A stretch of 41,307 bases of DNA from Chiloscyllium plagiosum (Eukaryota): the NCBI RefSeq assembly GCF_004010195.1, contig NC_057719.1:41348522-41389828 (forward strand). The letters are read 5' to 3'. The notes under the pieces are model-generated. The model ran no database searches, was not told the origin of the DNA, and worked only from the letters and a program-made list of their open reading frames with translations. The translations under genes and the position numbers were made by a program. Below are positions 7,543 to 39,540 of the stretch, piece after piece (the stretch's first letter is position 1; each line of letters opens with the position of its first letter).

Positions 7543-7764
7543 GAGATCAGAGTCAAGACTATAGTGTTGCTGGAAAGGCAGAGCAGGTCAGGCAGCATCT
7601 GAGGAGCAGGAAAATCAACATTCCGGGCAAAAGCCCTTCATCAGGAATGATGTTCGAAACATCGATTTTCCTGCTCCTCATATGCTGCATGACCTGCTCT
7701 GCTTTTCCAGCACCACTATAATCTTGACTCTGATCTCCAGCATCTGCAGTCCTCACTTTCGCCT
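7543..7764. mobile_element. Fold-back PLE terminal-repeat unit (family A), degenerate HHR
   Basis: Inverted arms 7543-~7625 / ~7655-7737; minus CTGATGAaGGGCttttGCCCGGAA; flanks agtgtttgaga / agtatttgaga. Confidence 0.85.
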
Positions 7765-7889
7765 AGTATTTGAGAACATATTGAGTGGAAAAGGTTTTAC
7801 CTCAGTATTAGCATCTAGCTTTGGAATCTTCCAACTGATCAGGCCCTGTATTTTTTCATCCAGCAAGTTTGCTCATGAATCCATTTAGA

Positions 7890-9292
7890 GAGAACAGGTG
7901 AAATGAAAGATGTACAAAGCCAAGCTTTGAAGCTGCAGTGTGGCTGGAAGTGGCTGGGGGAGAAATGTGGTCCCTTATTCAGGAACGCAGTGCTGAAAGA
8001 GGTTCAAGAAGCTCATCAGGGCTGGAAGGATGACTGGCTTCTTGTATTTAAGTACAAAGGTCCTCGCTCTGACTTCAGCAGCTTGCTCCTACACAACAAT
8101 CATCAGGCTGACTCAGCTCCACTCAATCCTCTCACTTGAGGCACCTCCTCACATCCACATCACTGATACCCTCATTTATTGCTGTCTCACACCCATCCCT
8201 CACAATCACCATCTGCAAATCTTGTCCTTCTATTCTCACACTCACAACTCTCTGATTTTTGGCTTTGCAGGAAAAGAGACCTTCAAGGGGGAAGTAGAGA
8301 ACAGTGCTCTGCCCTCTGATAAGGGGTAGCTTGACTGCTGGCCAGGGGGAGGCACTAAAATTAGCAAGCTGTCAGTGTGCCTGGCCACAGGAAATGGGAG
8401 AGCTTTGAGTCTTTCAGCTACCCAGTGACAGAATTAGACATCAGACAGCCACATGGCACACAGCAATCAATCATGTTGAATTGATGTCAGCACTGACTGA
8501 AATATGATAATCTGCACCATGATGACTTTGAACCTTTACTCCCTGTCAGGTTTAATTCATGTCTTTCATCTCCCACAGGTCCTTCAAGTGTCATTCAGGA
8601 ATTGGTGCTGGAGAAGAATAAACACAAGTTCAGAGCTCCCTGCACCTTTACATGACTCACATACACCCTCTATCAGCTCAGACAAAAACCACTCGGTGGG
8701 ACCTTCGAGGCAAATAATTGGATTTTCACACAATAATGCACTCCTCGTGAGTGAACAGGTGCAGATGTTGAAGAGAAGGACAGCAGTGGAGAGTACCTGT
8801 CAAAAGGTAAGGCCCCTCAAAGGTCTATTCAGCGAACTCTAAGCCTTAGGGGTCATCGACCAAGAGGATTATTTTGGAAGCAGCAGCAGTAAATGTGGGA
8901 GGATATTTCCAGGAAGTGCATCGATGAAGGCAAACTGGAGGAGTCCATCTGCACATGAGTGTCAGGCCTTTGTTGATGGCCATTTCCAGGGAAAGACTGG
9001 CAACTCAGATGCCACTGAATCTGTGTTGGTCTCACCAATGATCTGCATAGTCAGCCTGTCAGTTTAAATCTTGCCTTGGAGATTCAATACATCACTGCAG
9101 TGCTCTCCAACACTTGGCTGGCAGAGATGTGCAGGTCTGCCATGTGAAGGAAGATGGAGAAGTAGGACATGGATGTGATTTTTGACAGCCAGGGTTCTAC
9201 ATAGTAACTATCGCCCAGTCTGCCTCTACACAGGTGGAGCTGTCATTGGCTGCTCAGTCACCAGCTGCAAAAGCCAGCTGATGTCTACCATA
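7890..9292 (+). pseudogene. Harbinger Myb/SANT-like accessory gene remnant (multi-exon)
   Basis: WLEVAG...QC*KRFKKLIRAG (about 7941-8026); acceptor ttgcag|GAAAAGAGA at 8270/8271; acceptor cccacag| at 8578/8579 followed by PSISSDKNHSVGP; appears to continue at 10262-10320 after the PLE insertion. Confidence 0.6.
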
Positions 9293-10250
9293 GTTAGAGA
9301 TTTAAAAAACTGCAGATACTGCATCCGTAGTAGACAAGCAGGAGGCTGAAAGAACACAGCAAGCCAGGCAGCATCAGGAGATGCAGAAGTCAATGTTTTG
9401 GTGATAACCCTTCTTCAGGACTGGGGTGTGGGGACAGGGGGAGCTGCAGATAAAGTGGGGACCTTTAGGGTTTTAGGTGGGAAGAGGGTCAGAATGGTGA
9501 GGCAGGGATAGGTGAACACAAGTGATAGGTACGACCTGGTTGGTGAATGGGAAGAATGAATTCAGTTGGTAACTGGAAGGAAGGGTCAGTAGGTGGAATG
9601 GAAGGGAGGAGGCAGGGGAGGAAAGGGAGTCATGGGATGGGTGGGAAGGGAGCCGAGGGATGGATGGGAAGGTTATTTGAAATTGGAGAACTCAATGTTG
9701 CGGAAGATAAGGTGCTATTCTTCCAATTTGCGGTCTGATTCACTGTGGCAATGGAGGAGGCCGAGGATGGACATATCAGAAAGAAATTGGGAAAGAGAAT
9801 TGAAATGGGTGGTAACTGGGAGGTCAGGCTGACCATTCCGGGCCCCATTGAGGATCTCAGTGAAACGTTCCTAAGTCTACTTTTGATCTTACTGATGTAG
9901 AGAAACCCACATCGGGAGCATCAGATACAGTAAACTAGGGTAGAGGAGAGGAACTTCTGTCTCACTGGAAGGACTGTTTGGGGCACTGGATGGAGATGAG
10001 AGGGGTGACGTGCCCACAGGTTTTGCATCTTTTACTGTTGCAGGGGAAGGTACCGGGGGTTGGGGACGTGGTGGGGAGAGTGGCATGAGCCAAGGAGTGG
10101 CAAAGGGAATGACCCCTGCAGAAGACAGAGAGGGGTGGGGAGGGGAAGATGTTCTTGTTGGTGGGGTCTAGTTGGAGTTGGCGGATGCGTTTGAGGATGA
10201 TACGGTGGATGCGGAGGCTAGTGGGGTGGAAAGTGAGAACAAGGGGTCCC
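9293..10250 (-). mobile_element. Penelope-like element 3' part (GIY-YIG endonuclease plus terminal repeat)
   Basis: Minus LVYCI*CSRCGFLYISKIKSRL resembles the GIY-YIG motif VYCI.C..C...YIGET; degenerate HHR CTGAAGAagggttatcaccAAAA; TSD tgtctaccata (9282-9292) / tgtctaccgta (10251-10261). Confidence 0.85.
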
Positions 10251-10344
10251 TGTCTACCGTAAACATCTTAAATACCAGAGCAAGGGAAGGAAAAGCCTGC
10301 CTCTAACTCCGCTGAAGGTACAGTTATAGGACAAAAAGGAATTG

Positions 10345-37626: not shown

Positions 37627-37662
37627 ATTCCTGAAGAAGGGCCTGTGCCCGAAACGTCGAAT
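37627..37662 (+). ncRNA. Minimal type I hammerhead ribozyme motif (family A), plus copy
   Basis: ATTC CTGAAGA A GGGC ctgt GCCC GAAA CG TC GAAT: 4-bp stem I, core, 4-bp stem II, loopless palindromic stem III (ACGT), GUC triplet. Confidence 0.8.
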
Positions 37663-38384
37663 CTCCTGTTCCCTGGATGCTGCCTGACCTGCTGTGCTGT
37701 TCCAGCAATAAAGTTTCAACTCACATTTTTAATGCATTGTCTGAGCTGAGATATCACCTTTCTTTATAAAACCTTAAGTTATCTTAAGAATGTGACTTGA
37801 AAGAAGTTCTGGGATTAACAAGTTAATGAACCAAAATCTGCAACCCATTCTAAAAGATGGAAGACTTAACAGCAATCTCGGTTTGTTCAATATATTGTTT
37901 CAGTTGCATGACACTATAGTCTTTTCCAATAAATTATGATTCAGCTCCACAGCCACCCGATGAAGGAGCAGCGCTCTGAAAGCTAGTACTTCCAAATAAA
38001 CCTGTTGGACTATAACCTGGTGTTGTGTGATTTTTAACTTTGTATGCCCCCGTCCAACACCAGCACCTTCACTTCAAGGTTAAAAGCAGGCTAGGTTTAT
38101 TTGCTGATGATAAGATGTAAAGGATTTAGACTTGGAGGCAGTGTCAGCAGCATCTATATTTATAGCTGTGGGACTGTTGGTCTCCAAAATCTCAGGAAGG
38201 TGATGAGAAATGTTGGTTGTAAATTTCAAAGATAAAGCAGAACCAGAGTTCTAATGATAGCTAATCAGCATTTCTACCTGCAAGTGATTCATATTGCCAC
38301 AGAGATAAGTTTTGAAAGGAGAACTTCTCTATTATTCATGGATTCCCAGATAGAATCAGTCCATTAGAACTGGGAGAGATGGGA

Positions 38385-38523
38385 GAAAATGAGGATTGCA
38401 GATGCTGGAGATCAGAGTCAAGAGTGTGGTGTTGCAAAAGAGCTTACGCCCATTACATCGATTTTCCTGCTCCTCGGATGCTGCCTGACCGGCTGTGCTT
38501 TTCCAGCACCACACTCTCGACCG
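38385..38523. mobile_element. Asymmetric fold-back family A unit
   Basis: agagtgtggtg ... caccacactct inverted match; 14-bp TSD tgggagagatggga (38371-38384, 38524-38537). Confidence 0.85.
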
Positions 38524-39420
38524 TGGGAGAGATGGGACAGCCAAAGATTTAAAAACTCTATGGTTCACTGTGCAGGAATGGGGGTCGGCAATTGTGGTTT
38601 GATTCAAAAGTCTCAAATCTTTAGGATCTTAGTCAAAGCTGGAAGTTGCATCATACTTGCTGTGGAGGGAAAATATTCAGGAAAAAATTTCATCACGGGA
38701 GATTGTTCTAGGGTTAAAAGTTACAAAGCTAGCAAAGGAATAGAATAGAAGCAATCTCTTAGGAGCGAAGGATTGTTTTGGTGTGGATCCAGGAAATTGA
38801 AGATTTACATAAGGGACAATGTAAAGTATTCTTGTGATATAGTTTTTGGTTTGGCTACAAAGAAAATAGGATACTTATGCTCAGTACTTTCAGGCATTAG
38901 ATGCCTACAAAAGTTGTTTAGTCAATAGTGATTCTCATCTCTTTGTTACAGTAAAAAAATCTTCAAACATAAAATCTTGTTTTTATTCAGCTATCAAGTT
39001 TTGTAATTTATATAAATGACTTAGATGCGAACATAGGAGGTATAGTTAGTAAGTTTGCAGATGACACCAAAGTTGCAGGTGTAGTGGACAGTAAAGAGGG
39101 TTACCTCAGATTACAACAGGATCTTGAGCAGATGGGCCAATGGGCTGAGGAGTGGCAGATGGAGTTTAAGTTAGATAAACGTGAGGTGCTGCATTTTGGG
39201 ACAGCAAATCAGGGCAGGACTTATACACTTAATGATAAGGTCCTGGGGAGTGTTGCTGAACAAAGAGTCCTTGGAGTGCAGGTTCATAGCTCCTTGAAAG
39301 TAGAGTCACAGGTAAGTAGGATAGTAAAGAAGGCATTTGGTATACTTTCCTTTATTGGTCAGAGCACTGAATATACAAGTTGTGATGTCATGTATTGTGA
39401 TGTACAGGATATTAGTTTGG

Positions 39421-39540
39421 TAAAAACAATGACTGCAGATGCTGGAAACCAGATTCTGGATTAGTGGTGCTGGAAGAGCACAGCAGTTCAGGCAGCATCC
39501 AAGGAGCAGTAAAATCGATGTTTCAGGCGCACCACTAATC
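39421..39540. mobile_element. Family A-type unit with short inverted end, inserted in CR1
   Basis: ctggattagtggtgc ... gcaccactaatccag; TSD caggatattagtttgg / cagggtattagtttgg. Confidence 0.85.

Follow-up and report, generated by a model that had tools for sequence, protein, structure and literature searches.

Insertion junctions of Penelope-like elements cluster at the 5' edge of a hammerhead motif in a shark genome

Introduction

Why do truncated, inverted and internally deleted copies of a retroelement, inserted at different places, end time and again at the same few bases? The question is raised by a stretch of 41,307 nucleotides (nt) from the shark Chiloscyllium plagiosum (contig NC_057719.1, positions 41,348,522 to 41,389,828; the window in what follows), which contains stubs of two abundant hammerhead-bearing repeat families, here called A and B, together with a decayed third. 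A first-pass annotation had taken these repeats for Penelope-like elements (PLEs), had noticed that their junctions cluster at the hammerhead core, CUGANGA, and had proposed that the folded ribozyme, or the terminal-repeat boundary it marks, stalls reverse transcription. Here we report that the clustering is real, also when copies omitted from that annotation are included, and argue that it probably marks the 5' end of the element's RNA, where reverse transcriptase (RT) would run off its template.

Results

Junctions cluster just upstream of the hammerhead core

All end coordinates are counted from the first C of CUGANGA, taken as position 0; cleavage is predicted after +27 in family A and after +28 in family B. 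The end count comprises 18 insertions with 27 arms, in 24 of which the 5' end is observed. For the statistics the junction ends were placed by eye, following an automated local-alignment pass; the arm at 33133-33290 was entered with approximate coordinates, for the 16-nt arm at 39530 a 3' end of +100 was used (it lies at about +90), and two decayed arms of the third family near 19790 were excluded. Tested against a constant truncation rate, the interval from -10 to +21 is strongly enriched, with 17 of the 24 ends (binomial p 1.3e-8), and 12 of the 18 insertions have a junction in it. All 12 junctions listed in the first-pass annotation are real, each with at least one arm whose 5' end falls in this interval, and the exception it named, the pair centred at 37545, indeed has arms ending at -80 and -83. 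Its list was correct as far as it went, but lacked four run-through copies (cores at 9418, 18875, 36653 and 37957), a copy that ends at about +28 beside a CR1 fragment (15866), and three partner arms that end far off, at about +63, +75 and +190.

The ends are most concentrated from -8 to 0, where 11 of the 24 lie (binomial p 8e-11); among arms that reach position 0, 11 of 17 stop there. This peak withstands a scan-corrected simulation (p <= 0.0013, for rates up to 0.03 per base) as well as the use of one random arm per insertion (worst p 3.6e-6), and the standard deviation of end position is 2 nt, as against 31 nt for arm length. By itself, the interval from +1 to +21 holds six ends and is not significant (p 0.10). 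The edge zone is crossed by 6 of 23 arms. The automated alignment, which differs from the placement by eye for seven arms (examples are 37224m at -15, 38433p at +23 and 21993p at +4), puts 9 of 19 arms in -8 to 0.

As had been claimed, the junctions do not sit at the predicted NUH cleavage site: one end in 24 lies there, without enrichment (p 0.61), and that case is ambiguous, which rules out ends defined by cleavage. Descent from one or two ancestral junctions, named at the outset as an observation that would overturn the claim, is likewise ruled out, since three different junctions occur in copies that differ by only one to four letters in 56 nt; near-identical copies with different junctions mean that the junctions arose independently and were not inherited. 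Target-site duplications of at least 11 nt, with at most one mismatch, were found in 11 of the 14 intervals tested. These duplications, the unequal arms and the presence of strand-change joints in short-read contigs of two organisms rule out a fold-back artefact of assembly. Spliced introns were considered as the source of the deletions at 21992 and 36347 and rejected, as the joints, judged by eye, have no GT-AG fit.

Sequencing reads give a comparable picture. From RNA run X21, a poly(A) library, 12,955,460 raw reads were read and 6206 placed on 37553-38092. The depth over family A, in 18-nt bins from +48 down to -42, is 1955, 1815, 1472, 881, 233 and 215, its steepest step (x0.26, about fourfold) falling across -6. 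In all, 328 joints were found; among the 15 listed, nine are strand changes with one side at -8 to +6 of family B, two of these exactly at -8, in contigs from both organisms, A and B. Summed contig depth of family A is about 1:4, upstream versus downstream, in both organisms, and is too uneven to be used as a histogram. Pattern scans of viral (one locus) and metagenome (14 loci) contigs returned chance matches only, of at most 29 nt.

Family A is Penelope-like and family B putatively so

Judged by its coding sequence, family A is an endonuclease-containing (EN+) PLE with a C-terminal GIY-YIG domain upstream of the terminal repeat, in agreement with the earlier assignment: the domain at 35976-36401 scores 24.3 bits against a Pfam cut-off of 22.6. 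Its closest named relatives are proteins with RT and GIY-YIG from Chiloscyllium punctatum and Rhincodon typus. The relatives P0001-P0003 align to the family A copies at 9418, 18875, 21992 and 36347; P0002 and P0003 (59-76% identical) have GIY-YIG and, below the cut-off, RVT_1, and carry a C-X4-C-xx-C motif, a candidate for the Cys-rich, Zn-finger-like linker between RT and endonuclease of the Neptune clade. No RT core was found in the window copies of family A. For family B, the putative assignment to PLEs rests on its minimal hammerhead ribozyme and its architecture.

Two further traits of EN+ PLEs are present. The 3' ends fall into two modes about 35 nt apart (+88 to +92 versus +122 to +126 in family A; +79 to +83 versus +119 in family B), as a one-sided tail of 30-40 base pairs (bp) would give, and inverted, 5'-truncated arms lie inside one target-site duplication. 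Alignments and folds of the motif show the conserved boxes, stems I and II and the palindromic 15.2-16.2 pair of a minimal hammerhead, with cleavage predicted; the 5' strand of stem I occupies -4 to -1 in family A and -5 to -1 in family B. In an Rfam search no hammerhead matched at E <= 1, and only hairpin-driven microRNA models appeared, below cut-off. The folds of both families are no stronger than those of shuffled sequences (-7.7 kcal/mol, z -0.56, for A; -14.3, z -1.56, for B). The copies are solo or head-to-head, not the tandem head-to-tail hammerhead units of non-LTR retrozymes (LTR, long terminal repeat), and in place of the integrase, tRNA primer site and fixed 4-6-bp duplication of LTR retrotransposons there are GIY-YIG and duplications of 8-21 nt. 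The element may work like an LTR element, but it is not one.

The repeat carries promoter-like and poly(A) signals

Core promoters of the type considered here combine a TATA box (TATAWAW) with an initiator (BBCABW) at a spacing of 30-31 nt. A TATA box, TATAAAT, reappears in family B once positions 37926 and 37928 are given their majority letters, which have the support of 85-90% of the depth in X1 and X9, and of 18-19 out of 21 and 37-47 out of 51 X21 reads. This box occupies 37928-37934 of the 37957 copy, with an A at 37949 (-8). In the undeleted 36653 copy the decayed TATA starts at 36615 (-38), 30 nt before the A at 36645 (-8) of an initiator-like TTCACA. Across the window, 4 of 38 TATAWAW sites have such an initiator at +28 to +34. 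The family A run-through copies have an AT island at -37/-36 (3 of 3) and BBCABW with its A at -4 (2 of 3): the 9418 copy has TTTAT at -36 and CCCAGT with A at -4, and the plus arm at 37545 has TTTTAT at 37595-37600 and CTCATT with A at 37627 (-4), ahead of the core at 37631-37637, stem II at 37639-37650 and predicted cleavage after 37658. The family A ends in the peak span -6 to 0, and the family B solo copy at 24630 ends at -7/-8, by the predicted family B start. A similar layout is found in PAc, the Poseidon element of Anolis carolinensis, whose printed template (PMC11167929) has TATATAT at -45 and TCCATA with A at -14, a spacing of 31 as counted by eye; the repeat of an Adineta vaga element also has TATA and initiator.

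In X21, loose poly(A) ends of family B occur after 38012 (554 reads) and 38015 (814 reads), that is at +55 and +58, 12-15 nt past the AATAAA at 37995-38000 and just before a GU-rich tract that begins at about 38019. They lie upstream of the 3' ends of the insertions (+79 to +83 and +119), so that in family B, the one family with such reads, a poly(A) site stands inside the repeat, as the terminal redundancy of a strong-stop system requires. As a separate observation, AATAAA is present in 6 of 6 family B copies that span the site and is followed by the GU-rich tract; the two positions together have 1368 poly(A) reads, and family B may supply poly(A) sites to host genes.

Individual insertions

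The insertions are collected in Table 1. In three of those with two arms (7650, 38438 and 33300) the arms are not nested, which means that neither is a copy of its partner. The minus arm at 33300 we take to be downstream sequence from the start of the open reading frame (ORF), given the continuity of the frame and the general organisation of such elements; a protein search with this presumed ORF-start piece (33150-33287) gave no matches.

Some observations concern single copies. The right arm at 20104-20144 skips the stretch between stem II, which ends at +20, and about +62, with a short sequence in common, making this a further joint at the edge of stem II. The copy at 15866 has the only 5' end within 1-2 nt of predicted cleavage, and overlaps the adjoining CR1 fragment by 3 nt. 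Insertions are nested at 35768-38076, where a family B pair and three family A insertions, all with duplications of their own, lie within two family B copies; these elements often land in one another's AT-rich upstream region. At 19757-19897 lies a decayed fold-back of the third hammerhead family (stem II of 5 bp), centred at the core; its right arm lacks half of stem II, and the window holds no reference copy of this family. Fold-backs are not exclusive to Penelope-like copies, since a LINE-like (long interspersed element) repeat without hammerhead forms one of 217 nt at 1459-1675 (arms 93% alike). Unrelated to the junction cluster is an RT-bearing LINE remnant at 31794-32750 (Pfam RVT_1, E 1.8e-20), which extends across a short N gap.

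Table 1. Hammerhead-bearing insertions of the window; ends are relative to position 0 (UTR, untranslated region)
Feature	Coordinates	Strand	Junction or core	Ends	Target-site duplication	Remarks
Family A head-to-head pair	7543..7764	both	7650	minus arm -6; plus arm from about +14	11 nt	not nested
Family A pair	13099..13326	both	13229	-5 / -3 (both -4 allowing one transition)	15 nt	long arm to +126, short arm to +91
Family B pair	19979..20144	both	20101	-2 / -3	12 nt	
Family A pair	26761..26986	both	26890	+2 / -1	16 nt	stem II recopied between arms, at centre
Two-arm insertion	33133..33397	plus and minus arms	33300	plus arm from -4	16-21 nt	joined minus arm has no sequence in common with plus arm
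Family B pair	35851..36021	both	35912	+8 / +21	11 nt	fold exactly at stem II
Family A pair	37337..37724	both	37545 (centre)	-80 / -83	15-17 nt	arms identical
Family A pair	38382..38521	both	38438	minus arm +63..+124; plus arm about +6..+89	14-16 nt	not nested
Family A pair	39431..39545	both	39528	minus arm +16, in stem II; 16-nt plus arm from about +75	12-16 nt	
Family B solo copy	24530..24628	-	24630	-7 (-8 common with duplication)	8 nt	complete minimal hammerhead, stems I and II 5 bp each
Family A solo copy	37101..37227	-	37228	-3	12 nt	
Family A copy beside CR1 fragment	15779..15866	-		about +28, ambiguous		
GIY-YIG C-terminus and short 3' UTR fused to hammerhead	21794..22085	+	21992	about -2	none clear	candidate misdirected jump or deletion
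GIY-YIG fragment fused directly to hammerhead core	36046..36546	+	36347	0; extends to +198	11-13 nt	about 250 nt of 3' UTR missing relative to 9418 copy
Family A run-through copy, diverged subfamily	9300..10261	-	core 9418			into 3' UTR, GIY-YIG and linker
Family A run-through copy	18774..19550	-	core 18875			spans N gap; coding remnant upstream
Family B run-through copy	36547..36737	+	core 36653			AATAAA at +38
Family B run-through copy	37742..38076	+	core 37957			

Discussion

What can be discerned about the process that leaves these ends 0-8 bases upstream of the core? We consider it probable, though far from certain, that the transcript starts there and that RT runs off the 5' end of the RNA. 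A promoter of TATA box and initiator in the upstream repeat would start the RNA at about -8 in family B or -4 in family A; RT, primed from nicks on either target strand, would begin internally, about 80-125 nt downstream, as shown for PAc, and would make a short run-off cDNA up to the RNA 5' end. Sealed alone, this cDNA would account for the solo stubs (24630, 37228); joined head to head to its counterpart from the opposite nick, it would form a pair (13229, 20101, 7650, 33300, 38438), the non-nested cases (7650, 38438, 33300) needing two RNA-templated arms or a later deletion; moved elsewhere on the RNA, by a jump into the matching 3' repeat, it would yield a run-through copy, and a misdirected jump would yield the apparent deletions at 21992 and 36347, in which GIY-YIG sequence is joined straight to the core. 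In a minority of joints (35912, 26890) the self-complementary stem II has probably served as microhomology or as a snap-back hairpin. If the element RNA ends at +58, RT can start only near the RNA 5' end, and would consequently run off after about 90-130 nt.

A number of observations weigh against run-off at a transcript start. The six of 23 arms that cross the edge zone need a jump, which we infer, or a tandem read-through RNA. In X21, the loose ends before 37945 (293 reads) and 37954 (228 reads) are consistent alternative upstream sequences, so that part of the depth step is subfamily divergence, and there is no pile of read starts, a poly(A) library being unable to show RNA 5' ends. Among the 11 arms that end in -8 to 0, at most one, an ambiguous case, has an untemplated G opposite a cap. 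Two family A arms reach -5/-6, past the predicted start, family B ends at -2/-3 fall short of -8, and the TATA of family A is non-canonical. The Penelope promoter of Drosophila virilis is TATA-less and lies farther upstream, with a start 46 nt ahead of a 75-nt intron that reaches to helix I. Finally, the poly(A) reads of family B may stem from host transcripts, none are shown for family A, and none of P0001-P0005 matched the family B copies, for which the window provides no coding evidence.

In retroviruses and LTR elements, strong-stop synthesis initiates near the RNA 5' end, runs off and is followed by the first strand transfer. Tentatively, and with distinctly less confidence than in run-off itself, we suggest that the pseudo-LTRs of vertebrate PLEs are functional U3-R-U5 repeats, regenerated by transfer of strong-stop cDNA: under the TATA promoter the RNA would begin right at the hammerhead, the poly(A) signal would close a terminal redundancy of roughly 65 nt, and stubs, fold-backs and hammerhead-ended deletions would be failed transfers. 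The order of promoter, start, poly(A) signal and downstream segment in family B resembles U3-R-U5. Unlike the retroviral system, priming here is by nicked target DNA instead of tRNA, GIY-YIG takes the place of integrase, failed products integrate as stubs, and the transfer is one that we infer. In L1 twin priming, inversion points are scattered and the first priming takes place at the poly(A) tail. Our elements are like L1 in that primings at opposite nicks result in an inversion inside one target duplication, but unlike it in that the internal start sites of both arms are fixed and their ends share a single edge.

Reverse transcriptase reads its template 3' to 5' and meets a helix at the helix's 3' base. 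That a folded ribozyme, protein-bound and possibly dimeric, stalls or releases RT and so provokes fold-back or jump, we regard as unlikely. While the terminal-repeat boundary invoked in the first-pass annotation comes close to run-off at the RNA 5' end, a stall induced by the fold fits poorly, since the peak is on the 5' side, past an already unwound, weak fold: the helix 3' base, +19 to +33, holds 2 of 24 ends (p 0.78), the main peak lies 5' of the whole fold, and the folds, as said, do not exceed shuffles. A stall would accommodate the ends in +1 to +21, three of which fall on the 3' arm of stem II (+14, +16, +21), but as a group these six are not significant; RT released after displacing a bound region could also land on the 5' side. 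Protein binding is plausible, given that the PAc hammerhead needs protein to cleave, but the length of PAc products in vitro tracks the template 5' end up to -126, upstream of the hammerhead, and hammerhead mutants leave the product unchanged (PMC11167929). Structure may still explain a minority of joints at the self-complementary stem II (35912, 26890, 39528 and the right arm of 7650): the exact fold at stem II in 35912 and its recopying in 26890, which would also suit a stall, suggest that stem II probably acted as microhomology in some joints.

It is also improbable that the template was trimmed, a 5'-to-3' exonuclease shortening a longer RNA up to stem I or to a bound protein. The peak does coincide with the 5' strand of stem I, its ends spread over about 8 nt, and a cap-templated G is not evident, yet trimming leaves unexplained why, in family B and PAc, a TATA stands 30-31 nt ahead of an initiator-like A, and the fold that would have to halt the exonuclease is weak. 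Still more doubtful is a secondary origin of the cluster, by deletion of palindrome centres after insertion or as a homology boundary between subfamilies. Stem II, as a direct repeat across the palindrome axis, could have guided a deletion at 35912, microhomology is possible at 21992, and upstream sequence varies among subfamilies (68% between two run-through copies, besides the loose read ends); against this, in the window an end directly adjoins its partner arm or the target duplication, solo copies lack a palindrome, and the youngest long palindrome, at 37545, is intact with identical arms. Least credible is an origin of the head-to-head pairs by self-priming, with an antisense template that has its 3' end at the 5' edge of the repeat (Arkhipova et al. 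2013, as proposed in PMC3846280), which would suit the small hairpins at the centres of 37545 and 35912 and the nesting of several pairs (13229, 20101, 39528), but not the solo stubs (24630, 37228) and direct fusions (21992, 36347) that end there without an inverted arm, nor the three pairs that are not nested, nor the sense template of PAc.

How does this compare with what is known of the family? The insertion unit of EN+ PLEs consists of a pseudo-LTR, an adjacent inverted 5'-truncated copy and a 30-40-bp tail (PMC8557442, PMC3846280), and shares with the copies described here the head-to-head arms, junction palindromes, one-sided tail, target-site duplications, hammerhead in the repeat and C-terminal GIY-YIG. 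In the parts of these two papers covered here, 5' truncation is variable, and neither a sharp peak of 5' ends at the hammerhead edge nor a poly(A) site within the repeat and ahead of the tail is described. Cervera and de la Pena (2014, PMC4209133) described minimal type I hammerheads from metazoan PLEs, which our two motifs match in CUGANGA, the one extra base, the G-C closing pair of stem II, GAAA, the palindromic 15.2-16.2, the absence of helix III and the 4-5-bp stem I; that paper proposes self-cleavage and circular templates, whereas our ends avoid the cleavage site. The closest biochemical precedent is PAc (Frangieh et al. 2024, PMC11167929), in which RT initiates internally, the tail is the product of two starts about 110 nt inside the ORF, both target strands are cut and extended, hammerhead cleavage is not required and reads do not end at the cleavage site. 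As printed, the PAc template resembles our families in having TATA and an initiator-like motif just upstream of the core, but the paper, as far as covered, proposes a multi-copy mRNA and invokes no start-site mapping, run-off or template jump.

Inverted pairs, junction palindromes, tails and hammerheads have thus already been published for PLEs. The 5'-end peak and the layout of promoter and poly(A) site were not found in the PLE literature searched, which comprises parts of PMC11167929, PMC8557442, PMC4209133, PMC3846280, PMC2377424 and bioRxiv 10.64898/2026.07.22.740005; supplements and subscription papers may contain them, Fig. S2 of PMC11167929 may show the ends of PAc copies, and Arkhipova 2006 and Evgen'ev and Arkhipova 2005 lie outside this scope. 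What the present analysis adds is the spacing of the TATA box, the poly(A) site and a prediction for the lizard element.

For the regeneration of pseudo-LTRs and for tandem and inverted units there was, according to PMC2377424, no obvious mechanism. If stub ends mark the start of the RNA, internal initiation about 100 nt downstream forces RT to run off and jump, and tails, fold-backs and repeats would be linked in one retrovirus-like cycle of a telomerase-related RT. Capped RNA ends would then be predicted at -4 and -8 in the shark, and stub ends near -14 in the lizard element. Family B also appears to disperse functional poly(A) signals across the genome.

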